From: a virus
Strand: one strand, 5' to 3'
IMG/VR virus record: IMGVR_UViG_3300049434_000014
Location: 1 to 64,000 of that record
Length of the DNA: 64,000 bases
The position numbers and the translations under genes were made by a program. Below, piece by piece: positions 792 through 58,481 of the stretch. A model generated the notes under the pieces. That model ran no database searches, was not told the DNA's origin, and saw only the letters and a list, made by a program, of their open reading frames with translations. The first letter of the stretch is position 1. Each line of letters starts with the position of its first letter.

Positions 792-800
792 GGGTAGGAC
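792..800 (+). promoter_or_regulatory. phage-type promoter element GGGTAGGAC (first of ~39 copies, see findings)
   Basis: T of TAG lies 11 nt before ATG 806; recurs in intergenic positions across the window. Confidence 0.7.
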
Positions 801-805
801 TCACT

Positions 806-1114
806 ATGGATACTTGGCTTGATCCTCAGTGGTTGATTCCTTATGCTGCGTGGTCTTTGGTTGGCGTATATCTTTTGTTCGTGTTGTACGCCGTCGTGTC
901 GAAGATTAACGATTTTCGTTTCTCTCGATGGGTTCGCGATGAGTCCGTTGAGATCAATGATGTTCATCAGCGTATGCGTTTGAACGCTGACAATTACGTT
1001 CCTGATGTAGATGAAGATTTTGAGCCTAACATCACTCTTGATGATGTCACTGCAGCTGCCATTCCTGCGCCTCGTATGCCTACGATGAGTTTGGTGGTCG
1101 ACGATGAAAGCTGA
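806..1114 (+). CDS. hypothetical membrane protein
   Basis: ORF with N-terminal TM helix. Confidence 0.65.
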   Translation: MDTWLDPQWLIPYAAWSLVGVYLLFVLYAVVSKINDFRFSRWVRDESVEINDVHQRMRLNADNYVPDVDEDFEPNITLDDVTAAAIPAPRMPTMSLVVDDES

Positions 1115-1391
1115 AGATATCGCTGAGATGTTTCATCTTTGCGAGGACGAAGAGTGGGAGACTGTCGCGGAGTGGTGTGGTGGACGGCTTGTTAATCATG
1201 AGGTCGGCGATTCGGGTGAGTTCGAGACGGAGTTGGTAATCCCTCGCCCTGGTCGCCCAGCTCTGTCGGGTCGTCTTGACGATCTTATTGTCCGCTTAGC
1301 GTCTGGTGAGTTTATTGTCTACGAGGTTAAGCAGGGACCTGAGTTTGGAGCTTGGCCACGGATAAGGGACTCGATCTTCAAGAGCGGGTAG
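1104..1391 (+). CDS. hypothetical protein
   Basis: ORF packed between neighbours; stop is the TAG of a GGGTAGGAC element. Confidence 0.65.
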   Translation: MKAEDIAEMFHLCEDEEWETVAEWCGGRLVNHEVGDSGEFETELVIPRPGRPALSGRLDDLIVRLASGEFIVYEVKQGPEFGAWPRIRDSIFKSG

Positions 1392-1427
1392 GACTCTAAC
1401 ACGATCTTCTTCTGTTAGGGGCCTACC

Positions 1428-1652
1428 ATGTGGACTTTGTTGTACCTACTTATCGGTGTCATTGTGGCTGTGTATGCTGCGCGGCCTGCCTGGCGTCGAG
1501 TATCTCCAGGGAAGCAGCGCACGCGGCTGTGGCAGGTGTGCGCGGTCATGGTGCTGGCATGGCCAGGAGTTGGCATTCTCGCCCTGTGTGATACCAAGTT
1601 GACTGTTCAGGAGTATGTCAATCAGTGGGTGTTTGAAGACAGCACGCAGTAA
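1428..1652 (+). CDS. small membrane protein
   Basis: Two hydrophobic segments; AGGGG upstream. Confidence 0.6.
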   Translation: MWTLLYLLIGVIVAVYAARPAWRRVSPGKQRTRLWQVCAVMVLAWPGVGILALCDTKLTVQEYVNQWVFEDSTQ

Positions 1653-1683
1653 TCACAGCACTACGGAGGGGGTATGATCTTTC

Positions 1684-3165
1684 GTGTCTGAACCCTCACG
1701 TGTAGTGCTATCGGCAATGTTTACCAACGATGTGACGTTGGTTGATGAAGTATCTAGGCTCATCTCTGAAGCGCATTTCATTGATCCTACGTTGCGTAGT
1801 TTGTTTCGTGGTGCACTGGCTTTCCGTTCCATTGCTGATGGTGTGTTGACGTCTACGGCTGTGTCGGATCTTGTGTCCGGCTCGGACGCGGGCACGGCTG
1901 CGTTGGTAGTGGAGACCTTTGAGGCGTTGGTCGCTTCGCCTGCTACGGCTGCGGATGCTCGGTGGGCGGTTTCTCGGCTGAGGGCGGATCGTGAGCATTG
2001 GCTTACGCAGACTGCGTTGGCTGATGCCACCGAGATTCTTTCCGGTTCGGTGGCCGACGACAAAGCCGATCGGGTGTGGGCTGGGCCAGCGGATGCTCGG
2101 GAGTGGGCGGCTGCTCGGATTGCTGAGATTGCTACGGAGACGTCTATTGATTCGTCTCCCGCTGGTGATGTGAGTAAAGAAGCACAGGATGTCATTGCTG
2201 CCTATGTCGCGGCTCGCGATGAGGATCGGTCCCGTCGTCCTCGGTTTGGTCTAGGGGTGCTTGACGAGGTCACTGGGGGCCTCGGACCGGGTGAGCTGGT
2301 CGTTGTCGGTGCTCCGTCAGGGCTTGGCAAGTCGCACACTTGTGTGCATCTTGCTTACGAGGCTGCGGTGCGTCAGGGGCTGTCAGTTTATTTCGCTACG
2401 TCGGAGACTGTTCGTTCGGTGGTGCGCAGTCGAATCATCGCACACCATTCTCGTCACGAGAACTTCACTGAGGAACGAGAGTCGTTAGGTCTTGCATTCG
2501 GTTTGGATTCATCTTTGATTTCGCGTGGCGGTCTCGACCAATCGCACATGCCGTTTTTCGCCCGTGTCGTTTCTGATTTCTCTGCGGTGTCTGGATCCTT
2601 GTGGTTAGCTCAGGTTCCGCATGGTCAGACGGTGTCGGTGTTGTCAGCGCAGGTCGACGCGCGTGCTCGAGCGCGTTCTGTGGATTTGGTGATCGTTGAT
2701 TACTTCGCTTTGTTTTCGGGCGGTAAGAGGTTCCCGTCGAGACGTGAAGAGCTTTCGGAGATTATTCTCGCGGGTAAGCATTTCGCGGTTGATCACGCTA
2801 AGGGACGCGGCGTGCCTGTTGTTACGCCGTGGCAGTTCAATCGACAGGCTAAAGAGGAGATGTTGCGGTCGGGCTCACTAGAGCTTGACGGGCTCGCTGA
2901 GACTGCTGAGATTGTCAATACTCCTGATATGGTTTTAGCGCTGGCTCCTGATGGCGCGCGTGAGGGACGGTTCGCCAATCTAAAGCTTGGTGTGTTGAAG
3001 AATCGTTCAGGTACTGTTCTTAAAGATGGCGATGAGATTGGGTTACGTGTCGACTATGCGACGTCGCATTTCGCTCAGCGGATGGGAGTCGACGTGAATG
3101 GCGCAGCATATGTTTCCAACGGGTCAGGCGATGTTGATAACGCGCTGGCTGCGTTGCTCGGGTAG
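1684..3165 (+). CDS. dnaB: DnaB-like replicative helicase
   Basis: Walker A GAPSGLGKS, Walker B LVIVDY, PWQFNR, KNRSG arginine-finger motif. Confidence 0.9.
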   Translation: MSEPSRVVLSAMFTNDVTLVDEVSRLISEAHFIDPTLRSLFRGALAFRSIADGVLTSTAVSDLVSGSDAGTAALVVETFEALVASPATAADARWAVSRLRADREHWLTQTALADATEILSGSVADDKADRVWAGPADAREWAAARIAEIATETSIDSSPAGDVSKEAQDVIAAYVAARDEDRSRRPRFGLGVLDEVTGGLGPGELVVVGAPSGLGKSHTCVHLAYEAAVRQGLSVYFATSETVRSVVRSRIIAHHSRHENFTEERESLGLAFGLDSSLISRGGLDQSHMPFFARVVSDFSAVSGSLWLAQVPHGQTVSVLSAQVDARARARSVDLVIVDYFALFSGGKRFPSRREELSEIILAGKHFAVDHAKGRGVPVVTPWQFNRQAKEEMLRSGSLELDGLAETAEIVNTPDMVLALAPDGAREGRFANLKLGVLKNRSGTVLKDGDEIGLRVDYATSHFAQRMGVDVNGAAYVSNGSGDVDNALAALLG

Positions 3166-3173
3166 GAGTAAGT

Positions 3174-3674
3174 ATGACTGTCGACTTGCAGGTTATCGCG
3201 GCGGATATTTGCCGCAACGTGGGGCGTGAGTTTCCCGCTTCCCGTGAAGACATGGTGTTGCGTGAGCTGGCTCATCTTATGGAAGAGGTAGTCGAGCTTG
3301 ACGAGGTTCTAGAAGAGGACCATCTCGCGGGTATTAAAGATGAGTTGGCCGACACTGTCCTTACTTGTTACGTCGTTGCTCATTATCTGCCTGAAGATGT
3401 CGGACCACATTTGGGTGTGGCTGTGCTTGCGGCAGCGGTCGGCTATCTCCCCGAGGCTCCCTACCGTCCTGCTGGCCGTGCGATGAAGGCGGGCAGGCGC
3501 TATCTCGGGATCGCGCGTAGGAGCGGGCCTGCAGCGGCTGTGTTGCTGCGTCTGGCTGAGGTGGTGGTCTCTTGTCACGCCGTGGCGCATCGCATAGGCA
3601 TCGACCTAAATGAAGCGATCTTGGAGAAGACTCGTGTCGTCTTCTCTCGCGGGTGGCGCGACCCTGCTGGGTAG
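3174..3674 (+). CDS. MazG-like nucleotide pyrophosphohydrolase
   Basis: EEVVEL...DELAD acidic motifs; GIDLNEAILEK tail. Confidence 0.7.
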   Translation: MTVDLQVIAADICRNVGREFPASREDMVLRELAHLMEEVVELDEVLEEDHLAGIKDELADTVLTCYVVAHYLPEDVGPHLGVAVLAAAVGYLPEAPYRPAGRAMKAGRRYLGIARRSGPAAAVLLRLAEVVVSCHAVAHRIGIDLNEAILEKTRVVFSRGWRDPAG

Positions 3675-3717
3675 GACTTGCTAGGTTGATACGAGTTTAA
3701 TCGTTGAGGGGCGTACC

Positions 3718-4818: not shown

Positions 4819-5156
4819 TGTCTGGCGAGCGGGATTGGTTGTGTGACGTTTCTGTCGAGGAACTGAAGCGGCGCCTTCGTGCTGTTATGGGCGAATCGAT
4901 GGAGATCGAGTGCATTCTCGCGGACGCTCTCGGATATGGACGCGGCGAAGAGGATGGTCCGTGTCCGGGAGCGCCTGTCACTGGTGATCACACGGCTGTG
5001 ACGTTGGCTATGGAGGCTGCTGCGACGCTGCGTGCTGTGGGTTATGTCCGGCCTCCTGTCGTTGTGTCTGAGGCGCGTGAGCTTCGAGTGCCTGTGTCGG
5101 ATGAGTCTGGGTTCTTTCGTTTCATGCTTCCGTCTGAGACAGAATCGAGCGGGTAG
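4818..5156 (+). CDS. hypothetical protein
   Basis: ATG overlaps upstream TAA; ends at motif TAG. Confidence 0.55.
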   Translation: MSGERDWLCDVSVEELKRRLRAVMGESMEIECILADALGYGRGEEDGPCPGAPVTGDHTAVTLAMEAAATLRAVGYVRPPVVVSEARELRVPVSDESGFFRFMLPSETESSG

Positions 5157-5210
5157 GACTGAGACACGAAGCCCTTGAGGCTGTGTGCAATGAAGGGATC
5201 AGGGATCAAA

Positions 5211-5996: not shown

Positions 5997-6506
5997 GTGC
6001 GGAGGCTGCATCGACCAGGCGATATAGGTCGAGCGGTTGCGTCAGTGCCGATCATCGATGTGCTTGCATCGTTGGGCGTCATAGTCGAGGCAGCTCCGCT
6101 TCCCGGCACCACCCAGAAGATCTGGTGTCCGTTCTCGGATCTTCATCCTGATGGTGGTCGTCAACGTGAGATGCGTCTTTATCCTGATGGTAAGGCGCAC
6201 TGCCATATATGCGTGAAGCAATACGATTCGGTGTCGATGGCTGCCCAGGCTTGGGGAGTCTCGCAGCGGATCGCGGCGCAGCGTCTGCTCGCGGGCCAGG
6301 AGGTCATCGCTGAACGCCAGGCGGTGCGGTCGCTGTATGTGGTCCGTGCTGGCGCTGTGGCTGCGCTGGGCGTGTGGGCGGATGCTCATGACGTGGATCG
6401 GTTCGGGCCTGGGTATCGGCGCTGTCTGGCGCTTGCTGACCACATTCAGGAGCCGGGGCACGTGAAGCTGTGGCTTGCTGCGAGTAAACAATTCCTACGA
6501 GGGTAG
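5997..6506 (+). CDS. primase-type CHC2 zinc-finger protein (no TOPRIM domain)
   Basis: CPFxxxH...HCHIC...D pattern; AGGAGG RBS. Confidence 0.7.
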   Translation: MRRLHRPGDIGRAVASVPIIDVLASLGVIVEAAPLPGTTQKIWCPFSDLHPDGGRQREMRLYPDGKAHCHICVKQYDSVSMAAQAWGVSQRIAAQRLLAGQEVIAERQAVRSLYVVRAGAVAALGVWADAHDVDRFGPGYRRCLALADHIQEPGHVKLWLAASKQFLRG

Positions 6507-6514
6507 GACTTCTT

Positions 6515-6727: not shown

Positions 6728-6987
6728 TCACGTACTCGAATGGCTGTCATCTGTCCGAGTTGTCGGCGTTGGGTTGTTTACTCTTAGCTCGCATCTCGGC
6801 TGAGCACGTTGTAAGTTAGCTTCCCGTTAGGTGGACGGCTTGAGTGTCTGGCGTCTCCAGCGTGGCGGTGCCGAATATTTTCTTACCTGGAGACATTGTT
6901 CGACGAGGCGGTCTGGGGTCCGGTCTGCTTGTGAGTCTTCCTCGGTAGGACAGCTCAACTGTTGCCTAAGAGGTTGGAGAGGTTGTT

Positions 6988-7592: not shown

Positions 7593-8260
7593 GGCTGTTA
7601 GGGTTGGTCCTGGGAGCGGCTGTCCTCGTAGCCGGGTGTGGACCTACCAATCATTATGAAACTCCCATCACTCCCACTCCACTTCCAGCCACGGCCTCTG
7701 CACCGATTCCTAATCCTTTACCGGTGACGGAGTCGTCGGCTCGCCCTGAGTCGCTTCTCGTTTCGAAGCCAGCTTATGACCGGAAAAAGTACTTTGGTGA
7801 TGGCTGGCGTATCGTTGAAGGTAATTGCGATACGAGAGAGATTGTTCTTTCGTATCAGGCAGTTGGTGAGCCTGTCGACAGAGATGGTGATGGTTGTAAG
7901 GATGATGCGGACATTCTTGATCCTTACACTAATACTGTGATTAATCCTCATCTCAGTCAGATCGACCATGTGCTCTCGCTGAAGCGCATGTGGGATGGCG
8001 GTGCGTGGAAGTGGTCGCAGCAGCAGCGTCTGGATGCTGCTCAGGATCGTAACAATCTCCTGGCCGTCTCGGGCGCGGGTCCTTATGGCAATGAGGCCAA
8101 GGGTGATCTCGGTCCGGACAAATGGCGTCCGCACGCTCAGTCCGGGTGGTGTCGCTACGCCACCGTCTATCGTTTCACGGCTACGAAGTATATGATCTAT
8201 CTCACTCCCAGTGAGGATGTTGCGTTGAGTGATATGTCTGCCACCTGTCCTCCTCGGTAG
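7589..8260 (+). CDS. DUF1524/HNH-family nuclease lipoprotein
   Basis: Lipobox LVAGC; IDHVLSL, W..GA..W, NLLAVS, N.AKGD..P..W.P motifs. Confidence 0.8.
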   Translation: MRLLGLVLGAAVLVAGCGPTNHYETPITPTPLPATASAPIPNPLPVTESSARPESLLVSKPAYDRKKYFGDGWRIVEGNCDTREIVLSYQAVGEPVDRDGDGCKDDADILDPYTNTVINPHLSQIDHVLSLKRMWDGGAWKWSQQQRLDAAQDRNNLLAVSGAGPYGNEAKGDLGPDKWRPHAQSGWCRYATVYRFTATKYMIYLTPSEDVALSDMSATCPPR

Positions 8261-8284
8261 GATTGAGTGACCTAGGGAGGAACG

Positions 8285-8854
8285 ATGGAGACTGCTGTGG
8301 ACAATAAGGAATCTTTGGAGAAGGTATTACTTCTTGAATACGAGCAACTGAAGAAGGAACAGGTATCTCGTATTCGAGTTCGTGACAATCTTCTCTATGC
8401 GACATTGGTTTCTTTAGCAGCCGTGTTGGCTGCTGTGATCAATGAGCATGGTCAGTTTAATTTCCTACTGCTACTACCACCTGTTAGTTTGATTCTGGGT
8501 TGGACGTATCTCATCAACGATGAGAAGATCTCGGCTGTCGGCAGTTACATTCGGGTGGTGCTGACTCCACGCGTTGAAGACGTAATCGGCGGTTATGATG
8601 TGTTCGGCTGGGAGACTGCACATCGTATTGATGCACGTAGGAGGTTGCGTAAGATCTTGCAACTAGTTGTTGACCTAATGGCGTTTTGTTTTCTCCCGCT
8701 GGCTGCTTTGGTGGCCTTCATGGTGCACGGCGATCGGGCTGCTCCGTTTGTGGTGATTTGGAGTGTGGAGCTGCTGGCGATTCTTGTTCTAACGAGTATG
8801 TTCGTTGTTTATTCTGAGTTGTGGACGGTTCGCGCACAGCCTGCTGTTCGGTAG
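8285..8854 (+). CDS. integral membrane protein
   Basis: Four TM helices; GGGAGG RBS. Confidence 0.7.
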   Translation: METAVDNKESLEKVLLLEYEQLKKEQVSRIRVRDNLLYATLVSLAAVLAAVINEHGQFNFLLLLPPVSLILGWTYLINDEKISAVGSYIRVVLTPRVEDVIGGYDVFGWETAHRIDARRRLRKILQLVVDLMAFCFLPLAALVAFMVHGDRAAPFVVIWSVELLAILVLTSMFVVYSELWTVRAQPAVR

Positions 8855-8872
8855 GATTGAGGAGGTGTTCGG

Positions 8873-9983: not shown

Positions 9984-10112
9984 TTTGCTTTCACGGCGGT
10001 TAGAGGTAACATAGCTGTGCTATCCCGGCATGGTGTGCAGCAAGTGGTGGTGTTCGGGTAGTACCTTAATGTAAGTCAACTAATGTCGTTGTCGTCAAGT
10101 GTGAGGAGCAAC

Positions 10113-11459: not shown

Positions 11460-12284
11460 ATGTCGACTTCAGTAGTAATGGATTCAGATCACCGTACGGA
11501 TGGCAAGCGGTCAGTGAAGTTAGTGACTGTCCGTCCCGCGAGTCGCAACGGCGATGATGACAGCTTAGAGGAGATTTACGCCACCGAGAAGACTCCTAAC
11601 GCTGGCTCCGATGTGCTTGGCCGTCCGGTGGGCCACGTGGTGGCTCCTGAAGATCGGCTGCCGATCGTGACCGACTGGTCGGGGATGAAGGACTTTGTCA
11701 ACGCTCCCCCTTCCTATGATGTCTTTTACCGCCAGTACCTTTCTTACACTAAGTGGCTCGTGACTCGGTTCGGCGTTCCCGCATCGGATCTAGATGATGT
11801 CGTGATTGATATCATCATGCGCTTCATGGAGCGCGATTCGATTGGTGTGTTCTCCGGTGAATGGTCGACGCGTAGCGCTACGGGTAAGTCGAATTTCCGT
11901 TCCTACTACTCGAGGTTCGTTGTCACCTACGCCCGTGGCAAGAATCGTAACGTGCATAAGCACAATAGCCGCAATCTTTTGATCTGTGATGCTTCTGTTG
12001 ACGATGAGGGCAGCACGTCTTGGTTGGATGTTAATGCCCCTACTTCGTCATTCGAAGACGACGCTGTCGGCTCTATGGACTTCGATGGTCTGGTGTCGTC
12101 GCTGCGGGCCAAGGTCAAGCCTGAGCTGGCCGATGCTGTTGACGCTGTGGTTGAGATGTCGATGGGCGCACCGTCTATCAAGGTCGCCGAGTTGGCTCGC
12201 AAGCTTGGCGTCTCACAGCGGGTCGCCAATGATCAGCTTGCTGCGGTCCGTTCGGTCCTGGGCGATCTGGTCGGATCCCGGTAG
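11460..12284 (+). CDS. RNA polymerase sigma-factor-like protein
   Basis: Region-2-like FYRQY...DLDDVVIDI...NFRSYYSRFV; C-terminal HTH VAELARKLGVSQRVA. Confidence 0.65.
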   Translation: MSTSVVMDSDHRTDGKRSVKLVTVRPASRNGDDDSLEEIYATEKTPNAGSDVLGRPVGHVVAPEDRLPIVTDWSGMKDFVNAPPSYDVFYRQYLSYTKWLVTRFGVPASDLDDVVIDIIMRFMERDSIGVFSGEWSTRSATGKSNFRSYYSRFVVTYARGKNRNVHKHNSRNLLICDASVDDEGSTSWLDVNAPTSSFEDDAVGSMDFDGLVSSLRAKVKPELADAVDAVVEMSMGAPSIKVAELARKLGVSQRVANDQLAAVRSVLGDLVGSR

Positions 12285-12292
12285 GATCTTGC

Positions 12293-13591: not shown

Positions 13592-13936
13592 ATGTCGTCT
13601 GGGGATCCGTCTGTGCCTGATATTAATACTGAATTAGAACAGGCTGCGGACGTTGAGAAATTAGATGCTGTTCGACGGATCAATCAGAGGAAGCTCGCTG
13701 AGATTCGTTCTCAGCGAGCTGACCTTGATCCGTTGGGTGTGTATACAAAGAGACTTGAGTTGTTCATTGGTTGTGTGTGGCCGGAGGGTTCTCCGTACCG
13801 AATCCTTTTCGAGCTTGAATACGAATCCCAGATGGCTCAGGTTCTTGATCAGGCTCTCGCGGAGATTCGTAAGGCTCGCCTTGCTGCAACCATCACTCCT
13901 CCCGATGGTTCAGGGCTGATCATTCCTAAAGGGTAG
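13592..13936 (+). CDS. hypothetical protein
   Basis: GAGGA RBS; ends at motif TAG. Confidence 0.65.
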   Translation: MSSGDPSVPDINTELEQAADVEKLDAVRRINQRKLAEIRSQRADLDPLGVYTKRLELFIGCVWPEGSPYRILFELEYESQMAQVLDQALAEIRKARLAATITPPDGSGLIIPKG

Positions 13937-13944
13937 TACCTGCT

Positions 13945-15039
13945 GTGCCTTCCGCATTGCAGTGGCTTACGAGTTCGACGAAGACCCTTCATCGCGTGTT
14001 TGACGTATTCGGACCGGACGCGACGCTACGTACCGACGTCGTGATTGAAATCGAGCGACGAGTCGCCGCGTCCGAGCGGGTGGCTCTGTCGGCTGCGGAA
14101 GTGTCCGATGACGAGATTTGGCGAGTGGTATCCACGTCGCCTCTCGCTGGCGTTGCGTCTCGACTCGTGGTCGTTTCATACGCTGATCGTATCAAGAAAT
14201 GGCACGGTCTTACGCATTTTATAAAGAACAAGGCTGCATACTCTGAGACGACGTTATTGCTTTTGTCTGAGCGTGCCGGGGCGGGTGTCCGGCAGCGTTC
14301 TACGAAGAAGGGCGGTCTTCCGGGTAAGTATGTTTGGGAGACTGTATTAACTGAGTGGGAAGATGCTGTCCGCTCCTACGCAGCAGGTTGTGCGATCTCG
14401 TGTACCACTCCGTCGATCGAGTTGCCGTCTACCGGCAACCGTGGCGGTGTGGGTGCGATGTCGTCGCTGGCGCGGTGGCTGTCGTTGCGTTTGGAGGTCT
14501 CTCAGCAGCAGGCTGAGTATCTGTGGTCTCGCACGGGTGAGCAGTCTTCGTTGGCTCGTGACGTGGTCGATCAGCTTCGGCTGTCTGGTATCCCCAGCGC
14601 ACGTTCTATTGGGATGACGGAGTTTCGTGCTGCGGTTAATGCGGTGTTGACTGCGCATGGTTCAGAGGATTTCGCCGAGCTTGTGCTGTTTGGCCGTAAA
14701 CAATTGGCATTGACTTCGCTGGCTGACCATTCTTTTTCGTCAGCAGACTGGTCTCGCATCATCGGGTATCTGTCGCAGCGTTTGGATTGGCTCGCGCCGT
14801 TGAATGTCGCGCTGGCAACTAATGAAAGACTAGATCAAGTGCAGCGACGGTTGGGTATTCACCGTAAGTACATTCTCCACTATGCACATCGTGAAGATCC
14901 TGCACATAACATTGCAAAGCATTATGACCGTGTGCGCGTGTTGCGTTGTCGTCAGTTACTTGCTGACTTAGATGCGAGTCTCGCAGCCGTTCCGGGCGTG
15001 CCTGCAGCGTTTGGCGAAGTACTCTTAGCGTCGTGGTAG
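13945..15039 (+). CDS. DNA polymerase III delta (HolA)-like protein
   Basis: N-terminal pattern (F.G.D..LR; SPL....RLVVV..AD) resembles HolA; sits between delta'-like gene and polymerase. Confidence 0.45.
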   Translation: MPSALQWLTSSTKTLHRVFDVFGPDATLRTDVVIEIERRVAASERVALSAAEVSDDEIWRVVSTSPLAGVASRLVVVSYADRIKKWHGLTHFIKNKAAYSETTLLLLSERAGAGVRQRSTKKGGLPGKYVWETVLTEWEDAVRSYAAGCAISCTTPSIELPSTGNRGGVGAMSSLARWLSLRLEVSQQQAEYLWSRTGEQSSLARDVVDQLRLSGIPSARSIGMTEFRAAVNAVLTAHGSEDFAELVLFGRKQLALTSLADHSFSSADWSRIIGYLSQRLDWLAPLNVALATNERLDQVQRRLGIHRKYILHYAHREDPAHNIAKHYDRVRVLRCRQLLADLDASLAAVPGVPAAFGEVLLASW

Positions 15040-15048
15040 GACCGTGCC

Positions 15049-17271: not shown

Positions 17272-17279
17272 TATTGGTT

Positions 17280-17516: not shown

Positions 17517-17532
17517 TCGGGTAGTACTGAGC

Positions 17533-40345: not shown

Positions 40346-40382
40346 GACGTCGTTGACAAGGGGATCAACCCAGGAGGTTGTT

Positions 40383-41255: not shown

Positions 41256-41272
41256 CGGTAGGACTGTCATAC

Positions 41273-41343: not shown

Positions 41344-41352
41344 CACCGCTTT

Positions 41353-41430: not shown

Positions 41431-41434
41431 TTTT

Positions 41435-41568
41435 AGTGACGTGCTGAAGGAGCGGCCTACTTCGGATAAATCACTGGTCTCAAAAATCGGTGATGAGTTG
41501 GGTTCGATATCCCAACAACCCAGCGGGCGACTGCTGGGATTAGGCTGAGCCACATGGTTGCCGTCACT
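41435..41568 (+). ncRNA. Y-RNA-like RNA 3 (YrlA-like, tRNA-like domain)
   Basis: AGTGACG/CGTCACT stem; GTGCTGAAGG...TACTTC...GGTTGCC; T-arm-like GTTGGG-TTCGATAT-CCCAAC; CTCAAAA loop hairpin. Confidence 0.75.
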
Positions 41569-43278: not shown

Positions 43279-43309
43279 GCGCTTGAGTCGGAGACGGTAG
43301 GACAATAAC

Positions 43310-44899: not shown

Positions 44900-44907
44900 G
44901 ACTGTGT

Positions 44908-48399: not shown

Positions 48400-49270
48400 T
48401 GCTGAATGTGCTTCTGAGTTACATCGACTCAAAATCTCATGGAGTCAATTACAGGCTCATACCATTTGTAAGCAGCGTGCGATGCTTCAGCGTCGTGGTG
48501 GTCGCTCTCCGGTCACTGATATCCGTAACTTCTTTCACGGCACAGTTTGTGATCGGGTAATGCGGGCGTGGCTGGAGAGCGACGCTCAGCTCGCGGGCCA
48601 GATGCCTCAAATGGTTGATGACTATATGGAGCGCTGTCTGGATGAGGCAAAGGAAAACGGCGAGGGTGTTGTTCGGTGGAAGTCTCGCTCGGACAAGAAA
48701 GAAGTAGCTATTTTTTGTAAGGCGCTTCTGACTCGCCTTGAGCCGATGCTGCAGCGGCTTGTACTTCCTTATGAATACCAGCCTGAGTTGCGGTTTAAGG
48801 TACCGATTCGTATTCCGTATCTTGACGGTCATCCTGCTGAGATTGATTTGGTTGGCGGGATTGATATCGCGGTGCGTCGCTCTGTGAATCCGGCCAGGTG
48901 GTTTGCTTATGACCTCAAGGCCACTCGCAATCCTGACTATGTGCGCAAGACTTTAGGTCAGGGGATTTTCTATGACATTGCGATGCTCGCAATGTTTGGG
49001 AAGAGTCCAGAGGAGTTTGCTTTCCTACAACCTGCCGTTGACTCGAATCCCATCGTTCCTATCCGGGTATCCAATGATGATCGTGTTTCCATGCTGGCTC
49101 GGATCAAAGAAGTTGCTCACGATCGCTGGCGTGGTGATGATGCACCAACTAAGAATGTCTCAGCGTGTTCGTGGTGTCCGGTAAAGTTTTCGTGCATTCG
49201 TTTCTCGCCACAGGCTTCTGTTTTTACCCCCGTGCGTGGCCGTAGCGCCGCGCTCCGCTCGGCTGGGTAG
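48383..49270 (+). CDS. PD-(D/E)XK RecB/Cas4-like exonuclease
   Basis: SWS.L..H..C; PE; GGID; YDLKA; C-terminal CSWC.....C. Confidence 0.8.
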   Translation: MITSTDAECASELHRLKISWSQLQAHTICKQRAMLQRRGGRSPVTDIRNFFHGTVCDRVMRAWLESDAQLAGQMPQMVDDYMERCLDEAKENGEGVVRWKSRSDKKEVAIFCKALLTRLEPMLQRLVLPYEYQPELRFKVPIRIPYLDGHPAEIDLVGGIDIAVRRSVNPARWFAYDLKATRNPDYVRKTLGQGIFYDIAMLAMFGKSPEEFAFLQPAVDSNPIVPIRVSNDDRVSMLARIKEVAHDRWRGDDAPTKNVSACSWCPVKFSCIRFSPQASVFTPVRGRSAALRSAG

Positions 49271-49278
49271 GACTTACT

Positions 49279-50158: not shown

Positions 50159-51482
50159 TGCAGGTATGCAGATGCTTGCTGATCTCGGCATTGCTCTGCA
50201 GGACCCTTCGCTGACTGAGATTAGTTCTGTGGGTGGCACAGAGATCTCTGATGAGCAGTTGCTTGATCCTGTCGCCGAGCCTGACTCTCCTCCTATCTTT
50301 ACGTTGCAGCGTATGGTTTTCGCTTCGATGATGAAGCAGGTAATGCAGGTGGTTCCGCTGCGTGACTTCTACCCTCAGCTTAAGAACGTGTTGATTGAGG
50401 TCACTGATGGTCGGCTGTCCTTGACGGGCTCGGACTCGACGTCGTCTGTGGTGTCTTCGACTACGGCTGTTCGTGTGGATAATCCTGGCCGTGTGTTGGT
50501 GGGCGCTAATCGCTTCGCTGCGGTGATTGCTCGAGCTGCGGGTGCGGAGGTCACCATTCGGTGTGAGGGTGCGTCTGTGCTCATCTCATCGGGCGCGGCG
50601 TCGTGGTCGCTGCGGGTGGCGTCTGTTCAGGACTATCCTCCGTTGCCTGATCTCGGAGATATCTCCTGGTACGATGTTGACCGGTCTGCGTTTGCTCGCG
50701 CGATCGGCGGCACTCGTTATGCTGCTTCTAAAGACGATAACAAAGATCACATCATGCAGCTTGATATTGCTGGCGGTGTTGTGACGGCAACGGATGATCA
50801 GCGTTTCGCTCAGGTCCGGGAGAGTTTGCCTGTTGAGTTCGGGTGTCAGCTTCCTGCGTCTGGTGCGGATCTGTTGATTAAGATGCTTGAAAACAATGAT
50901 GCTGCACAGTTCCGTATGGCTGATACGGACTTTCACATTGTTGCAGAGATTGGTCCTGTGCATGCTCCTGACCGTGTAATCATTGCTCATTTGATGCGTC
51001 CGTTCCCTCCGGAAGCTCGGACGGCTCTCGCTGCTCCGCAGGCCGACAATCGTGATGTCCTCACGGTGGCTGCTGACGATCTGATCGAGGTGTTGCGCCG
51101 CGCTGCTCCTACGGCTGATGAGGAGACGGCAGCGGTCGCTCTGCGGATCGGTTCGCCTGAGCCTGGCAAAGTGACGGTCGCCTCGCGCAATCGCTACGGC
51201 GATTTGAGCACTGAGGTGATTGAGGCTGCGTTCGTCGTCGCTGGCTCGGAGCGGGTCGCTGAGGCGCGCACGGTGGTGGTGAGCCACGTTCATCTGCTCC
51301 AAGCCGTCAGGGCGTCTGTGGAGGCGTCTCCGTTGGGCGACGAGGAGGCTGGCGCTGGGATGGTTCAGCTCTTGCTTGGCCAGCCTCGGTCGCGCTCCCG
51401 TCCTGCGTACGTGATGGTCACCGACGCCGGTAGGACCGTGCAGGCCGTGCTCTCGCAGGTCCGTTCGGACTGGATATCTTGA
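50148..51482 (+). CDS. dnaN: DNA polymerase III beta sliding clamp-like protein
   Basis: P.L.NVLIE....L.LTGSD; DYP.LP; YAASKD; ATD..R.A; AGGAG RBS. Confidence 0.8.
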   Translation: MSDDAGMQMLADLGIALQDPSLTEISSVGGTEISDEQLLDPVAEPDSPPIFTLQRMVFASMMKQVMQVVPLRDFYPQLKNVLIEVTDGRLSLTGSDSTSSVVSSTTAVRVDNPGRVLVGANRFAAVIARAAGAEVTIRCEGASVLISSGAASWSLRVASVQDYPPLPDLGDISWYDVDRSAFARAIGGTRYAASKDDNKDHIMQLDIAGGVVTATDDQRFAQVRESLPVEFGCQLPASGADLLIKMLENNDAAQFRMADTDFHIVAEIGPVHAPDRVIIAHLMRPFPPEARTALAAPQADNRDVLTVAADDLIEVLRRAAPTADEETAAVALRIGSPEPGKVTVASRNRYGDLSTEVIEAAFVVAGSERVAEARTVVVSHVHLLQAVRASVEASPLGDEEAGAGMVQLLLGQPRSRSRPAYVMVTDAGRTVQAVLSQVRSDWIS

Positions 51483-52942: not shown

Positions 52943-54835
52943 ATGGCTATTCAGCCATTTGTCACGAGGGAACAAGCCGCAGCCCTTCGAGCTGCGCAGT
53001 CTGGCTCTAGGCTCGGCAACTCACCGGGGTTGGGCAATGGTCGTGGTGGAAGCGCTCAGATGGCGTTTGCTCCCACCCAGGAGCAGGAAGCTATCCGCGA
53101 CGGGTATCGTACTGGCCAAGACATTGTGATTCGCGCCCTCGCGGGTACTGGTAAGACTACGTCGCTGGAGATGCTTGCTCGCGACGATCTTCTCAAGCGG
53201 ATGACTTATGTTGCTTTCAACCGCTCTATTGCCGACGAGGCCAGTCGGCGTTTCCCTTCCAACGTCACCGCAAAGACTATGCATTCTTTCGCGTTTGGTG
53301 CGGTGGGTCGCCATTTTGCTGATCGGCTGAATGGTCCGCGTGTGGAGGCTTGGAAGGTCGCAAACATCCTCGGGATCCCTGAGCGTTTTGAGTTCGGTGC
53401 GTTCTCGCTCCGCTCGCATCAGCTTGCTCGGCTGGTCATGGAGGCTGTCTCGCGGTTTTGTCATTCTGATGCTTCCGAGCCCAGTGCAAGCAATATCCCC
53501 AAGGTTCCGGGGTTGGCTTCGGACGATGCGCGTCGGGAGTTGACTCGGATGCTTTATCCGTTCGTCGTGCGGGCGTGGGAGGATCTGTCTGCGCATCAAG
53601 GTCAGCTTCGTTTCTCGCACGATATTTACCTTAAGCTGTGGGCGATGACTGATCCTCAGTTGCCCGGTGATGTTGTGCTGGCCGATGAGGCTCAAGACTT
53701 CGATCCGGTGATTAAGCAGATCGTTAGCAATCAACGGAATGCACAGCTCATCTACGTGGGCGATAGCAATCAGCAGATCTATGAGTGGAGGGGTGCGGTC
53801 GACGCTCTTGCTTCCATTCCCAACGCGTTGTCTTTCCCGCTGCAGAAGTCGTTTCGTTTCGGGCCGGTCATCGCAGCTGAGGCTAATCGGATTCTCGAGG
53901 TGCTGGGCTCGCCTCTGCGTTTGGAGGGACATGAGCCTGTTGACTCAAAGCTGGCATTCCTTCTGGATCGTGGTGCTGCAGATTGCGTATTGACTCGAAC
54001 CAATGCCGAGGCTATCGCACGCCTGATGAATGCTCAGATGGATGGCGTGCGGGCTGGGTTGGTCGGCGGAACGGCTCAGGTCGAGGCTCTCGCTAAGGCT
54101 GCTCTGGATTTGTCGGAAGGTCGCAAGACTACGCATCCTGAGTTGGTTGCTTTCAATTCGTGGAATCAGGTTCGGGAGTATGCCGCCGAGGATCCTGATG
54201 CCAAGGAGATCCAGGTGCTGGTTAAGCTGGTCGATCGACATGGCCCTTACGCGCTCCTGGAGGCCGTGCAGCGGGCTGTTCCTGAGCAGTCTGCGGACTT
54301 GCTCCTGTCAACGGCTCACAAGGGCAAAGGCAGGGAATGGAACCGTGTCCTGATCGCTGGTGACTTCTCTGATCCTCGTGATGAGGATACGGGTGAGTGG
54401 GTTCCCGGTGAGCTTCGTCTTGCCTACGTTGCGGTGACGCGGGCGAAGAAGTTTCTCGATTGTTCCAATCTTTCCTGGCTAACTGAGCTGGCGCATTTCA
54501 ATCGGAATGAAGACGATCCTCAGCGGTATTTCTTGACTCCTGAGGAGGTCCCTGAGCGTGAGGTTATTGAGGTCGCGGCTGACTCGGCTCCTTCCGAGCA
54601 GGTCATTCCTGATCCTGAAGACGCGACTCGCTTGATGTTCCGAGGGACGAAGTATGATCCTGAATTGGTAGTTGCTCAGCGCACGCTCCCTCGCAGTAAG
54701 TATTACGGTATTTACTGTGGGCACGAGAAAGTGCGTGTTGTGCTCGCCACCGCTCAGGCGTTGGCTGTTGCTGAACGGTTCGGATTGACGGTAAGTCAGG
54801 CAGCCCGCGAACGGGTCGCTGAGCTTGCCGGGTAG
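52943..54835 (+). CDS. UvrD/Rep-family SF1 helicase
   Basis: ALAGTGKTT, AFN, DEAQD, VGD..QQIY.WRGA, SFRFG, STAHKGKGREW, RLAYVAVTRA. Confidence 0.9.
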   Translation: MAIQPFVTREQAAALRAAQSGSRLGNSPGLGNGRGGSAQMAFAPTQEQEAIRDGYRTGQDIVIRALAGTGKTTSLEMLARDDLLKRMTYVAFNRSIADEASRRFPSNVTAKTMHSFAFGAVGRHFADRLNGPRVEAWKVANILGIPERFEFGAFSLRSHQLARLVMEAVSRFCHSDASEPSASNIPKVPGLASDDARRELTRMLYPFVVRAWEDLSAHQGQLRFSHDIYLKLWAMTDPQLPGDVVLADEAQDFDPVIKQIVSNQRNAQLIYVGDSNQQIYEWRGAVDALASIPNALSFPLQKSFRFGPVIAAEANRILEVLGSPLRLEGHEPVDSKLAFLLDRGAADCVLTRTNAEAIARLMNAQMDGVRAGLVGGTAQVEALAKAALDLSEGRKTTHPELVAFNSWNQVREYAAEDPDAKEIQVLVKLVDRHGPYALLEAVQRAVPEQSADLLLSTAHKGKGREWNRVLIAGDFSDPRDEDTGEWVPGELRLAYVAVTRAKKFLDCSNLSWLTELAHFNRNEDDPQRYFLTPEEVPEREVIEVAADSAPSEQVIPDPEDATRLMFRGTKYDPELVVAQRTLPRSKYYGIYCGHEKVRVVLATAQALAVAERFGLTVSQAARERVAELAG

Positions 54836-54844
54836 AATAAGAGT

Positions 54845-55664: not shown

Positions 55665-55912
55665 GCTAATGACGAATACTAATCTCGGTCGTCGGGAGTC
55701 AAGGCTGTCTTTCGCAGATCCACGGGTATTAGTCATCACCGGAGAGTTAAGGTTCGTTCGGCCGGTTTTTATTGCGATACTTCCTTACCGGCTGCATCTT
55801 CATCTTGATGAACGTTCCTGCTCCCGACGACCTTCGACTTGACATGCATGGTCGTGTATGGTTGGGTAGTACTAGACAAGGTTGCAAGGTCGAGCGAGAA
55901 GGCGGTAAAGCC

Positions 55913-57139: not shown

Positions 57140-57545
57140 GGGATCGGTGACGGGTGGAGCGTCGCTCAGGCGCTCTGCCCCTCGCTGTCTTTCCCCATGG
57201 TTTGGCCACAGAAATACCAATCACGATTACCAGCAATGCTAATCCTATTGACTTCGCTTCTACGCTTTGTATGTTAAGTATTGTTAGTGTTGCTCCTGCC
57301 GCAGCAATACCTAGTGAGATTGTGCATTTCACTGCAATCCACCAGTGTTTGGTTATTCCCCACGGTGTTCCTAGTGTTAGAATGAATCCTGTTAGTAGCG
57401 TTGTTGACACAACAGGAATGAGAAGAATGTACGTGACGTTGTTGTTTAGTTGAACGAGTTGTCGAGTCGTTAGGGATTCACTCAAAGCAATGTAAATTGA
57501 GACAGTGAGGATTCCCAACCACGCCGATGCGAATACTATGTGCAC
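57072..57545 (-). CDS. DUF2269-like membrane protein (start uncertain)
   Basis: H..FASAWLG, GTPWGI.KHWWI.VK, ISVAKPWG; only convincing minus-strand gene. Confidence 0.65.
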   Translation of the reverse strand: MHIVFASAWLGILTVSIYIALSESLTTRQLVQLNNNVTYILLIPVVSTTLLTGFILTLGTPWGITKHWWIAVKCTISLGIAAAGATLTILNIQSVEAKSIGLALLVIVIGISVAKPWGKTARGRAPERRSTRHRSPKPQTHPLPGKEARGQGAAHAK

Positions 57546-57678
57546 TGTTAATAGTGCTGTTCTGATGCGGCGTGGAAGTTTTGGTTTGGCGAGAGGCCCG
57601 AGAATGTGAGCAGCTCATACCTGCAGAGCGTGACTTGTCAAGTGCGCAGCGTGGTCGCAAGTTTCGGGTAGGACTGTG

Positions 57679-57730
57679 TTGCATGGTTGTACGGCTTATG
57701 GTACGGTTGTACCAGTTCCGTTAAAGGAGG
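57679..57730 (+). promoter_or_regulatory. early promoter plus TCCGTTAAAGGAGG leader
   Basis: TTGCAT-17-TACGGT with TG extension. Confidence 0.8.
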
Positions 57731-57734
57731 AAGC

Positions 57735-58001
57735 ATGAATACTCGTAAAGCTCGTGATCCGAAGGTTGATCCGTCTCGCCAGGACAACGATCGAGCCCTT
57801 GCTGCAGCCATGCTCGCAGTCTGGGATGAAGACACAATTAAAGCTGTGTTGAGTGCTGTTCGTTCTGACGCGCGGTTGGGTGAGGCGTTCAGCGATCGGT
57901 ACGATGTTCCGGCAATCAGGCGCAATGTTTGCCGTTTGAATATGGTTGACTCGTTTTTGAGTGGTGTGCTTGAGGCTAGTGTCTTCCTGCGTCAGGATTG
58001 A
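57735..58001 (+). CDS. hypothetical early protein
   Basis: AAGGAGG RBS. Confidence 0.65.
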   Translation: MNTRKARDPKVDPSRQDNDRALAAAMLAVWDEDTIKAVLSAVRSDARLGEAFSDRYDVPAIRRNVCRLNMVDSFLSGVLEASVFLRQD

Positions 58002-58028
58002 GTTTTCTTACGTGGTGTTTCGTGTGGT

Positions 58029-58445
58029 ATGAATGTCTTTCCTAGCACCTATCAGGAAGGGCATTTAACGGACATGAAGGTTATTGACATCACGAGCATT
58101 CCGCGCAAGTGGCTCTCTTGTCGTGCGTGGCAGCATGCCTGGGATCACGGGCCTGCTCCGCTGCAAGAGGATCGAAGTGTGCAGCCGGTGGTGTGGGTGA
58201 CTCGCGCACATTGTGTGTCGTGTGCAACGAAGCGGTGGCGCTATTTCCGGGTGGGAGATGCTTTACCTATTAGTGGATGGGATTACGAGCATCCTGCAGA
58301 TTGGCGTTGGGCTATGCATGGTGTGACGCAAATGGAGGCCCGCGCGGAGCTTGCTCGCCGAGACATTGCTGGCGAAAAAGAGGGTAATAAGATTGCCTCG
58401 ATTCGCAAGACTGTAAAGAAGACTTCACGGGCTATCGCTGGGTAG
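58029..58445 (+). CDS. hypothetical protein with Cys/His motifs
   Basis: CR...H.W...C..C; ends at motif TAG. Confidence 0.6.
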   Translation: MNVFPSTYQEGHLTDMKVIDITSIPRKWLSCRAWQHAWDHGPAPLQEDRSVQPVVWVTRAHCVSCATKRWRYFRVGDALPISGWDYEHPADWRWAMHGVTQMEARAELARRDIAGEKEGNKIASIRKTVKKTSRAIAG

Positions 58446-58481
58446 GACCACAGCGACCCCACCGATAAAGGGAGCTGTGAG

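Follow-up and report, generated by a model that had tools for sequence, protein, structure and literature searches.

A strict GGTAGKAY element at gene junctions of an uncultured actinobacterial phage, a probable -10-only promoter for many leaderless mRNAs

Results

An uncultured 153-kb actinobacterial phage (G000) carries, at about 70 gene junctions, a strict element of 9–11 bases with the consensus sGGTAGKAYt. In the window, the whole 64,000-nt stretch of this phage that was analysed, GGTAGKAY matches exactly 38 times, 35 on the + strand and three on the - strand, whereas 100 dinucleotide shuffles gave 3.65 matches on average and 11 at most. The sites are listed here with two associated features (distances run from the T of the motif; SD, Shine-Dalgarno; G001 and G002 are two distant relatives).

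793..800, +: GGTAGGAC; intergenic, ATG 806 at 11 nt
1387..1394, +: GGTAGGAC; TAG is the stop of 1104-1391, following start 1428
1671..1678, +: variant GGTATGAT; GTG 1684 (DnaB-like helicase) at 11 nt
3161..3168, +: variant GGTAGGAG, possibly a plain SD; TAG is the stop of 1684-3165, ATG 3174 at 11 nt
3670..3677, +: GGTAGGAC; TAG is the stop of 3174-3674, start 3718 with its own SD
5152..5159, +: GGTAGGAC; TAG is the stop of 4746-5156
6502..6509, +: GGTAGGAC; TAG ends 5997-6506, ATG 6515 at 11 nt
6944..6951, +: GGTAGGAC; intergenic, GTG 6988 with its own SD
8256..8263, +: GGTAGGAT; TAG is the stop of 7553-8260, GGGAGGA ahead of ATG 8285
8850..8857, +: GGTAGGAT; TAG is the stop of 8285-8854, GAGGAGG ahead of GTG 8873
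10057..10064, +: GGTAGTAC; ends a 422-nt gap, first in the gene run containing the sigma-like gene
11460..12284, +: sigma-1, a 274-aa ECF-type sigma-like protein, candidate motif reader
12280..12287, +: GGTAGGAT; TAG is the sigma-1 stop, ATG 12293 (clamp-loader-like) at 11 nt
13932..13939, +: GGTAGTAC, without SD core; TAG ends 13592-13936, GTG 13945 at 11 nt
15035..15042, +: GGTAGGAC; TAG is the stop of 13945-15039, ATG 15049 at 12 nt
17267..17274, +: GGTAGTAT; TAG ends the DNA pol I gene (15244-17271), ATG 17280 at 11 nt; motif also at this junction in G001
17520..17527, +: GGTAGTAC; ATG 17533 at 11 nt
18783..18790, +: GGTAGGAC; intergenic, 18849 gene after a long leader
21842..21849, +: GGTAGGAC; TAG is the stop of RecA (20575-21846); motif also at the orthologous G002 junction
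23141..23148, +: GGTAGGAC; immediately past a -32.7 kcal/mol hairpin, a terminator-promoter layout
23784..23791, +: GGTAGTAC; within ORF 23431-24228, in-frame ATG 23797 at 11 nt (internal start or mis-called gene)
27225..27232, +: GGTAGTAC; intergenic, GTG 27238 (endonuclease VII) at 11 nt
28045..28052, +: GGTAGGAC; ATG 28106, with its own SD, is the probable true start
28974..28981, +: GGTAGGAC; TAG is the stop of 27977-28978
30560..30567, +: GGTAGGAC; TAG is the stop of 30310-30564, then a structured gene-free 236 nt (z -4.06)
31491..31498, +: GGTAGGAC; intergenic, GTG 31528
35661..35668, +: GGTAGGAC; right after 34618-35658, start 35800 with its own SD
37386..37393, +: GGTAGGAT; TAG is the stop of 36965-37390, ATG 37399 at 11 nt
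39265..39272, +: GGTAGTAT; ATG 39278 at 11 nt
40341..40348, +: GGTAGGAC; TAG is the stop of 40019-40345
41257..41264, +: GGTAGGAC; structured non-coding RNA candidate 11–12 nt downstream
41268..41553, +: structured RNA candidate with T-arm-like GGTTCGAT (z -5.85), upstream of the Ro/TROVE gene 41554-43278; a candidate non-coding unit served by the motif
43296..43303, +: GGTAGGAC; ATG 43310 (exonuclease) at 12 nt; kept at the G002 orthologue
44895..44902, +: GGTAGGAC; TAG is the stop of 44435-44899, GTG 44908 at 11 nt; kept at the G002 orthologue
49266..49273, +: GGTAGGAC; TAG is the stop of 48371-49270, ATG 49279 at 11 nt
51429..51436, +: GGTAGGAC; final 54 nt of the sliding-clamp-like gene 50148-51482, gene 51542 next
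54831..54838, +: variant GGTAGAAT; TAG ends the UvrD-like helicase gene, tRNA-Lys 54899 downstream
55865..55872, +: GGTAGTAC; RNA ligase gene (ATG 55913) downstream
57667..57674, +: GGTAGGAC; intergenic
58441..58448, +: GGTAGGAC; TAG is the stop of 58029-58445, ATG 58482 (polynucleotide kinase) with its own SD

These counts bear out an earlier note on this DNA, which had described a genome-wide element at gene junctions. The whole-genome count for which it called gives 69 copies on the + strand and five on the - strand; instead of the strand symmetry that it had named as speaking against a promoter, the - strand copies (three in the window, five in the genome) are as few as chance would give. 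No 8-mer of the whole genome is more over-represented than GGTAGGAC (z 22.5). The coordinates previously listed for the exact motif are right, each given at the N one base upstream, but six entries are one-mismatch variants (3160, 24617, 27055, 32340, 39892 and 54830) and the exact copies at 23784 and 51429 were missing. As had been noted, most copies have C as the last hexamer base (59 of 69); at position 8 of the motif C prevails over G (42 vs 12), and 19 of the 69 copies are GTAGTA variants, which contain no SD core. The TAG of the motif is the in-frame stop of the preceding gene at 17 window sites and at 25 of 69 sites genome-wide. The structural module (107–139 kb) contains zero copies.

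A start codon lies 11–12 nt past the T at 34 of the 69 sites (11 nt, n = 25; 12 nt, n = 9), comprising 27 ATG and seven GTG codons and no TTG. The starts previously placed at this distance, from 806 to 49279, all recur in the list above and are joined by 23797; that at 3174 keeps its spacing (11 nt) but follows the variant GGTAGGAG rather than the exact motif, and the close window sites include six GTAGTA variants, not five. The base preceding the start codon (-1) is a pyrimidine at 32 of the 34 close sites, compared with 56 of 102 SD-led control starts (55%; p = 1.8e-5), and it tracks the position of the start codon, not that of the motif. Of the 35 sites that lack an adjacent start, 31 show a pyrimidine-purine (YR) step equally far past the T (background 0.51; p = 2.4e-6); these distal sites mostly have a downstream start with its own GGAGG-type SD. 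The leaderless spacing is held by 13 of the 19 GTAGTA variants, and the TAG doubles as the upstream stop at 15 of the 34 close sites. In the commoner form, the AGGA sits 7–8 nt before the start, the exact register of the GGAGG cores in this genome, so it could act as an SD at 21 of these 34 sites. The variant GGTAGGAG, with the same spacing in seven cases, resembles a plain SD, and TAGGAT, TAGTAT, TATGAT and TAGAAT variants are also found at the spacing of the motif.

No shared -35 element is present, as the earlier note had it: between -47 and -5 the information content is close to zero, and no k-mer is left after correction. E. coli-type promoters are not enriched, and no other host-type or candidate early promoter class is visible in the phage. 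Five sites lie directly past terminator-like hairpins (-28 to -38 kcal/mol). Copies are located upstream of a tRNA cluster, of tRNA-Lys and of the structured RNA beside the Ro gene, the last reproducing the start-type spacing claimed for non-coding units, and immediately after the tRNAs at 96575 and 97076. Neither an integrase nor a resolvase was found in the phage.

Motif and spacing are kept in the two distant relatives, of 50% and 61% GC. G001 has 21 coding-strand and three opposite copies, with a start exactly 12 nt away in 12, and G002 has 29 and four, with a start at 11–12 nt in 15; the last hexamer base is C in 21 of 21 G001 copies, and T is the final base in half of the G002 copies. 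The motif is identical across phages of 50, 54 and 61% GC and is absent from the syntenic Microbacterium phage Magritte. Conservation at orthologous junctions is weak (6/25 vs 3/70 for G002; 1/14 vs 3/52 for G001). A second leaderless class, TGCTAnnnT, stands alongside the motif in each relative, so GGTAGKAY and TGCTAnnnT are distinct signals.

Sigma-1, present in the phage and both relatives, is predicted to fold as an ECF-type sigma factor. All of its best Foldseek matches listed from the PDB are sigma factors, mostly ECF (TM 0.63 for the sigma-2 domain), with the gp36 structure 9m7y_F among the fold matches, and Sigma70_r2 is matched weakly by 10 of 23 homologues. A second, FliA-like sigma is encoded at 144489-145262 (144.5 kb) and matches a separate promoter class, TAACGTTT-N11-CGATAT.

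Discussion

The element sGGTAGKAYt probably represents the -10 region of a promoter class that is specific to the phage, lacks a -35 and serves non-structural (early/middle) genes and several RNA genes. Promoter activity is our inference; what the sequence shows directly is a motif biased towards one strand and towards junctions, with a fixed spacing, a start-site signature and conservation in relatives. In this model the TA of the motif is where RNA polymerase would melt the DNA, and transcription would begin 11–12 nt past the T on a purine preceded by a pyrimidine. At about half of the sites this initiating purine would be the first base of the start codon (A or G), and a leaderless mRNA is predicted there; the remaining sites would yield a leader of 20–300 nt with its own GGAGG-type ribosome site, or a leader that is itself a non-coding RNA. 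The proposal that the promoter often gives leaderless mRNAs is supported by all sequence tests run, namely the fixed spacing, the YR signature, the lack of TTG, the hairpin and RNA-gene context, the relatives and the sigma-like protein. The TAG within the element often terminates the upstream gene, which saves space, and in read-through transcripts the AGGA of the commoner form, in SD register, could double as a ribosome site. The class had been proposed as middle/late; as the structural (late) module is devoid of copies, early/middle is the better assignment.

Which factor reads the motif is less clear. The sigma-1 protein, suggested previously, is indeed sigma-like, but it is just one of several options because the genome encodes the second, FliA-like sigma. 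To our knowledge, no sigma-70 group 1 promoter resembles the motif in having C as its last hexamer base, and ECF sigmas normally need a -35 element, so neither of the two obvious readers fits cleanly. Our rough and tentative estimate gives the ECF-like sigma-1 about an even chance and host sigma A a little under a third, leaving the rest to the FliA-like sigma or another factor. Motif copies precede both sigma genes, and the phage shows no further host-type class, which poses a bootstrapping problem if a phage sigma is required.

In an alternative reading, to which we give a minor but real chance, the promoter is genuine but is read by the host housekeeping sigma A holoenzyme, and the phage sigmas would serve other classes. 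The position of both sigma genes behind motif copies and the lack of another candidate early promoter favour it. Actinobacterial sigma A, with RbpA and CarD, commonly uses -10-only GnTAnnnT promoters, and the G at -14, the TA at -12/-11, the four TA-containing variants at the same spacing and the T-ending half of the G002 copies all agree with such an extended -10. However, sigma A needs a near-invariant T at -7, where C prevails in the phage and is universal in G001; the nine fixed bases are far stricter than host TANNNT, the host-like TGCTAnnnT class is separate in both relatives, and the motif is the same in phages of differing GC content yet missing from Magritte.

It is improbable that the element acts in RNA as a ribosome-binding or translational-coupling signal, combining an upstream stop with an AGGA SD core. 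The AGGA register, the TAG stops, the GGTAGGAG variants and the start-associated sequences (SAS) of cluster K mycobacteriophages (GGGATAGGAGCCC; PMC3203893), likewise with a TAGGA core in one orientation at non-structural genes only, would fit. Against this, the SD-less GTAGTA copies most often stand at 11–12 nt, C beats the better-pairing G at position 8, and neither the GG ahead of TAG nor the C that follows is able to base-pair with the 3' end of 16S rRNA. Roughly one copy in two stands 20–400 nt from a start with its own SD or precedes tRNAs and other RNAs; the YR signature extends to sites without a start codon, TTG starts are lacking, and the TAG is a stop at fewer than half of the close sites.

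Still less credible is a host or phage endoribonuclease that binds GGUAGKAY and cuts polycistronic RNA 11–12 nt downstream at the Y/R step to yield monocistronic mRNAs that are leaderless, as well as RNA precursors. A measured cut would equally fit the fixed distance to the YR step, copies immediately past tRNAs suit it, and the phage encodes RNA repair enzymes (RNA ligase, polynucleotide kinase and a Ro-like protein), but there would be little RNA to process past the strong terminator-like hairpins, no candidate nuclease was found, and the TA-centred, -10-like composition with G at -14 and the two phage sigma genes are left unexplained. The least credible reading is an asymmetric site for a DNA-binding regulator that would block or modulate transcription, as stoperators do in cluster A mycobacteriophages. 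It accommodates many asymmetric copies in one orientation relative to transcription in short intergenic spaces overlapping stops and starts, but stoperators have neither a fixed start-codon distance nor a YR signature, the element is just 9–11 bp, and a lysogeny repressor system is unlikely because integrase and resolvase are lacking.

Among known systems, transcription start site maps of Mycobacterium and Streptomyces describe housekeeping -10-only TANNNT promoters with G at -14 and leaderless mRNAs. The phage-specific promoter class proposed here resembles them in the TA 11–12 nt before a purine start, the G two bases upstream, the lack of a -35 and the leaderless ATG and GTG genes, but differs in its last hexamer base (C in 86%), its nine nearly fixed positions and its travelling with a phage lineage across 50–61% GC. 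T4 late promoters (TATAAATA) are read by gp55. The middle/late promoters of phiEco32 are AATGTA centred at -11.5 and read by the phage sigma gp36 (PMC12276001). Common to both and to the present class are one short element near -10, no conserved -35, many copies and a divergent phage sigma. Here, in contrast, the sequence is GGTAGKAY rather than AATGTA or TATAAATA, the host is actinobacterial rather than enterobacterial, the copies serve non-structural genes and spare the structural module, about half of the sites are predicted to be leaderless, the element doubles as an upstream stop codon, and the class is known from sequence alone.

The SAS of cluster K phages resembles GGTAGKAY in its TAGGA core, in occurring in one orientation and only at non-structural genes, a few bases ahead of starts, in sometimes containing an upstream stop and in having conserved flanks unable to pair with 16S rRNA. 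It is, however, 13 bp long with an AGGAG core, 11–19 copies per genome and a variable 3–7 bp spacer (PMC3203893), and its function was still untested in PMC12699233, whereas the core here is 8–11 bp, lacks an SD core in 19 of 69 copies, keeps a fixed spacing, lies far from starts in half of the cases and has no ESAS-type inverted repeats. Stoperators, in the passages of PMC3203893 that describe them, are likewise many oriented asymmetric sites at gene junctions, but they are repressor sites of temperate phages, unlike the start-site geometry in a phage with no integrase seen here. The most likely reading is that the element is a promoter specific to the phage from which many messages would begin exactly at the start codon, a strategy already known and clearly exemplified anew here.

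Genome and lineage

The window covers the initial 64 kb of a complete IMG/VR virus record of 153,455 bp (hereafter G000) with a GC content of 53.8%. Nearly all of the roughly 243 genes of G000 are on the + strand. With only 127 bp, its terminal repeat does not suffice to place the genome ends, and position 1 is therefore arbitrary. The window encodes replication and recombination proteins (a DnaB-like helicase, DNA polymerase I, RecA, clamp and clamp-loader-like proteins and a UvrD-like helicase), together with an exonuclease, a methyltransferase, an RNA ligase, a polynucleotide kinase, a Ro/TROVE protein and two tRNA-Lys. The structural genes lie further downstream:

107-139 kb of G000: structural module (endolysin, terminase, portal, protease, major head, tape measure, minor tail)

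Domain searches of the complete G000 genome found neither Phage_integrase nor Resolvase, and the lineage is probably lytic. A megablast search with 12 kb against GenBank phages returned no match. Among named phages, Microbacterium phage Magritte comes closest, with a shared gene order and a PolA of 37% identity; since this similarity is only distant, G000 represents a new lineage of large actinobacterial phages. Of the 243 + strand genes, 92 (38%) end in TAG, about half of them in a GGGTAG context, and the palindrome GCTGCAGC is strongly over-represented in G000, with 29 copies on each strand.

A strand-specific element at gene junctions

In the window, the motif GGTAGKAY (forms GGTAGGAC and GGTAGTAC) has 35 copies on the + strand and 3 on the - strand, where shuffled sequences give 3.65; G000 as a whole has 69 and 5, respectively. 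GGTAGGAC is the top over-represented 8-mer of the genome (42 copies versus 3.0 expected; 3 on the opposite strand). Ranking k-mers by a maximal-order Markov model was of no help, as the motif's own sub-words are enriched. Other enriched 8-mers (TGAGGCTG, TCCTGATG and more) were rejected as signals, being codon-usage words within genes.

The gene-junction placement that the earlier note proposed for an NGGTAG(G/T)A(C/T) element extends to the whole genome: the TAG is the in-frame stop of the upstream gene in 25 of the 69 copies and 29 copies are intergenic. Copies were not equally frequent within genes and on both strands, since the 15 nominally intragenic ones lie nearly all at the extreme start or end of an ORF and only 5 copies are on the - strand. 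Sixty-five of the 69 fall within 1-106 kb, among replication, nucleotide and RNA metabolism and small genes, and none falls among the terminase, portal, capsid and tail genes at 107-139 kb. The motif is thus confined to one functional gene class (non-structural), as are phage-sigma-specific promoters; the middle/late class once suggested becomes an early/middle one.

The logo reads y-S-G-G-T-A-G-K-A-Y-t, with information limited to -4 to +6 around the T of the TA (hereafter T). A shared -35 had been reported missing, and this was borne out by zero information from -47 to -5 and by the lack of any 4- to 6-mer enriched after correction in the -35 zone. TA is present in 69/69 copies, as fixed by the search pattern, and is retained in functional-looking variants too; taken as a class, one-mismatch variants have no clear strand bias and only some look functional. 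The last hexamer position (-7) is C in 59 and T in 10 of the 69 copies, in agreement with the predominance of C noted before and unlike the host TANNNT. Generic TANNNT at leaderless spacing was not above control in G000, and E. coli-type promoters and terminators showed no enrichment. A variant with C for G at position 5, GGTACGAY, is found at G000 positions 92111, 107006 and 148207 (segments L029:8111, L030:3006 and L032:4207), at or near the heads of five-base-periodic non-coding arrays, and may be the promoter form that serves them.

Spacing and start-site signature

An ATG (27) or GTG (7) that begins an ORF of 40 codons or more lies exactly 11-12 nt after T at 34 of the 69 sites (11 nt in 25, 12 nt in 9), so the spacing first seen in the window holds genome-wide; by arithmetic, chance would give about 0.2. 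No TTG was found at this leaderless spacing (0/34). The base preceding the start codon is a pyrimidine in 32 of these 34 close sites versus 56 of 102 starts led by a canonical GGAGG-type Shine-Dalgarno (SD) sequence (p 1.8e-5), and at the 12-nt sites the pyrimidine shifts together with the start codon, not with the motif. Where no start is adjacent, a pyrimidine-purine (YR) step stands at the same distance in 31 of 35 sites (background 0.51, p 2.4e-6), which brings the sites with either a start codon or a YR step 11-12 nt after T to 65/69. Bacterial RNA polymerase classically prefers to start on a purine (+1) preceded by a pyrimidine (-1), and group 1 sigma-70-family promoters start transcription at a purine 6-8 nt past the hexamer. 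Such a step has no known role in ribosome binding, and the signature is the strongest in-silico argument for a transcription start at T+11/12. One copy, at window position 23784, lies inside ORF 23431-24228 with an in-frame ATG at 23797, 11 nt after T; it may be an internal promoter that yields a shorter product of 143 aa, or else the ORF of 265 aa has been called too long.

Promoter or translational signal

Taken together, sequence statistics and comparative data make the promoter reading of the motif well supported. That the element acts purely on RNA, as a ribosome-binding signal, is improbable, although the AGGA of the commoner form is placed 7-8 nt before the start, like the GGAGG cores of G000. 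These four nucleotides are in the correct SD register in 50 of the 69 copies, and could therefore act as an SD on read-through RNA; seven GGTAGGAG variants with identical spacing may even be plain SDs. However, the other 19 copies are of the GTAGTA type and have no SD core, yet leaderless spacing is found in 13 of these 19 versus 21 of the 50 GGA copies, which bears out what had been claimed for such variants. At position 8, C is preferred over the better-pairing G (GGTAGGAC 42, GGTAGGAG 12), the conserved GG..C flanks do not pair with the 16S rRNA 3' end, and most genes 20-80 nt downstream of a copy have a GGAGG-type site of their own. Moreover, copies are found ahead of RNA genes, namely the 95.4-kb tRNA cluster and, as a variant at 54831, a tRNA-Lys, and ahead of a strongly structured 286-nt stretch just upstream of the Ro gene. 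Five copies stand a few bases past GC-rich hairpins with perfect stems (-28 to -38 kcal/mol), in the layout of a terminator followed by a promoter.

The structured stretch itself (window 41268-41553, z -5.85) is gene-free, contains a T-arm-like GGTTCGAT hairpin and directly adjoins the 5' side of the gene for the Ro/TROVE protein (41554-43278), for which it is a candidate partner RNA of the Y-RNA/YrlA-like type. No Rfam family was matched when the RNA ahead of the Ro gene was scanned.

At its fullest, the promoter reading would make the 9-bp element the stop of the upstream gene, the sole promoter element of an ECF-like phage sigma with transcription starting on the start codon, and a fallback SD on read-through RNA. 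This combination is offered tentatively, as a possibility on the doubtful side. The sigma so proposed would need no -35, in which it would differ from known ECF sigmas.

Candidate sigma factors

Two predicted sigma factors are encoded by G000:

11460-12284, + strand: sigma-1, ECF-type sigma-like protein, 274 aa
144489-145262 of G000 (segment L032:489-1262): sigma-2, FliA/group-3-like sigma, 257 aa

Homologues of sigma-1 have 240-290 aa, and for this reason the start at 11460 is preferred and the longer one at 11061 taken as wrong; some homologues are labelled 'sigma24' by JGI. Pfam and PHROG scans of the 407-aa ORF 11061-12284 found nothing, sigma-1 itself gave no Pfam Sigma70_r2 or r4 hit, its family profile gave only noise against PDB sequences, and tblastn against 50,697 phages gave no match. 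Sigma70_r2 was matched weakly, below the cut-off, by 10 of 23 homologues (best E 0.0011). The AlphaFold model is of moderate confidence (pLDDT 70.7). Among the best PDB matches listed, Foldseek returned only sigma factors, mostly ECF, headed by sigma E, sigma L and sigma H (prob 0.99-1.00); the sigma-2 domain superposes on 4lup_C with a TM of 0.63 and an rmsd of 3.4 A, and C-terminal HTH helices are modelled. As modelled, sigma-1 has the layout of ECF (group 4) factors, with sigma-2 and sigma-4 domains and no sigma-3. Its closer homologues lie on contigs of 150 kb (P0002) and 100 kb (P0019). A minimal ATG-TAA frame (window 10059-10074), 10 nt after the T of the 10057 motif, precedes the 10083 gene, which leads to the sigma-1 gene.

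The sigma-2 protein has counterparts of 52-61% identity in the distant relatives G001 and G002 and a weakly conserved one in Magritte, gp47; its gene lies just ahead of a 3.7-kb gene-free pentamer array. Both factors are present in G001 and G002 and, much diverged, in Magritte, where they correspond to gp47 and gp60, both with no annotation beyond 'DNA binding protein'. A Pfam Sigma70_r4 search of G000 was negative; so was a search for a T7-type RNAP, which is uninformative because control genomes gave no match either. A second element, TAACGTTT-N11-nnCGATAT(ACCTAGTGTAAGG), has 8-11 copies in G000, on the + strand only and ahead of small genes, two of them 20 nt behind a GGTAGGAC copy (tandem promoters):

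67103-73050 of G000 (segment L028:3103-9050) and 86092 (segment L029:2092), + strand: TAACGTTT-N11-nnCGATAT copies

Because it is close to the FliA/sigma-28 consensus TAAAGTTT-N11-GCCGATAA (PMC7286023), this class is probably that of sigma-2. With sigma-2 so assigned, sigma-1 or the host sigma A is left for GGTAGKAY. Against sigma A counts the C at the last hexamer position. An ECF sigma recognizes a bipartite promoter with an AAC-type -35 and a CGT-type -10, and a promoter without -35 is unusual for it; no such bipartite form is seen at the GGTAGKAY sites, which have no -35. Motif copies also stand ahead of both sigma genes of G000, and no other early promoter can be seen in the genome. Since neither sigma-1 nor sigma A is a clean fit, the reader can only be given as chances: roughly even for sigma-1, distinctly lower for sigma A and lower again for another factor.

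The motif in related phages

The comparison covered G001 (segments L041-L050), G002 (L033-L040) and Magritte (OR553905.1; L053-L059). G001, a 186-kb IMG/VR contig of about 60% GC that is also binned in a Ca. Nanopelagicales MAG, has a PolA 58% identical to that of G000. It contains 21 coding-strand and 3 opposite copies of the motif, all GGGTAGGAC, with C at the last hexamer position in 21/21 and an ATG or GTG exactly 12 nt after T in 12. G002, a 146-kb contig of 50% GC, has 29 coding-strand and 4 opposite copies, with T at the last hexamer position in 14/29 and a start at 11-12 nt in 15. Scans of metagenomes and genome contigs added only one 1.8-kb fragment and the MAG-binned copy of G001. 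At orthologous junctions, the motif recurs in G002 in 6 of 25 orthologues of motif-led genes versus 3 of 70 other genes, and in G001 in 1 of 14 versus 3 of 52; judged by these junctions, motif positions turn over among the relatives.

A second clustered class, TGCTAnnnT-N6-ATGACGAACACC, has 40 copies in G001 and 23 in G002 and is absent from G000. Its small genes all open with ATGACGAACACC (Met-Thr-Asn-Thr), 12 nt after a TGCTAnnnT-type -10 element:

L041:7600-8000 (G001), - strand: example cluster of the TGCTAnnnT class

With its conserved 5' coding tag, the class resembles an extended -10 promoter of host type that serves leaderless genes. As it occurs beside the motif in G001 and G002, GGTAGGAC and TANNNT-type signals are distinct coexisting classes. 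Magritte lacks GGTAGKAY (1 and 3 copies on the two strands). It has a strand-specific junction motif of its own, sCGATATCCCTG (11 copies, 0 on the opposite strand), which is sigma-28-like at -10 and lies mostly in the structural region, 0-5 nt before ATG, as well as a composite TTAGCGCGT...TGCAATAAT element with 8-14 copies.

Implications and comparison with known systems

If confirmed, the motif would be a promoter that combines high specificity with a length of only about 10 bp, with candidate cognate sigmas, from uncultured large actinobacterial phages, and a possible orthogonal expression part for Actinobacteria. It would also provide a natural data set of about 35 leaderless genes that share one promoter type, and fix the start codons of about 35 genes that ordinary gene callers would misplace. 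In such phages, a stretch of 16 bases would hold stop codon, promoter and start codon together.

Of the elements described so far, the one that most resembles the motif in sequence and layout is the start-associated sequence (SAS) of cluster K mycobacteriophages, a 13-bp GGGATAGGAGCCC with at most 2 mismatches, virtually always 3-7 bp before a start codon (PMC3203893), whose function has so far been a matter of proposal (PMC3203893, PMC12699233). In sequence, only the TAGGA core is common to both, the consensus here being sGGTAGKAYt instead of GGGATAGGAGCCC. A start follows within 5-6 nt at 34 of the 69 copies, whereas the others are 18-400 nt off or precede RNA genes. The motif nevertheless suggests a promoter reading for SAS, which, if one element does serve as stop, promoter and fallback SD in G000, may be promoters of the same kind. 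Cluster A stoperators are repressor sites of temperate phages, unlike G000 with its lack of integrase and resolvase domains. Compared with the group 1 sigma-70 -10 element, the motif has the T at -12 and the A at -11 and lacks the T at -7.

T4 late promoters are single -10-centred elements read by a phage sigma, and leaderless mRNAs from -10-only promoters are established in Actinobacteria. The AATGTA promoters of phiEco32 likewise have a single -10-centred element, read by the phage sigma gp36 (PMC12276001). Like the phiEco32 middle/late and T4 late promoters, the motif is one element near -10 with no conserved -35, and like those phages G000 encodes predicted sigmas of its own (sigma-1 and sigma-2). 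Single-element phage-sigma promoters and actinobacterial leaderless mRNAs are thus both already known, and the GGTAGKAY element would be a further example of that kind.
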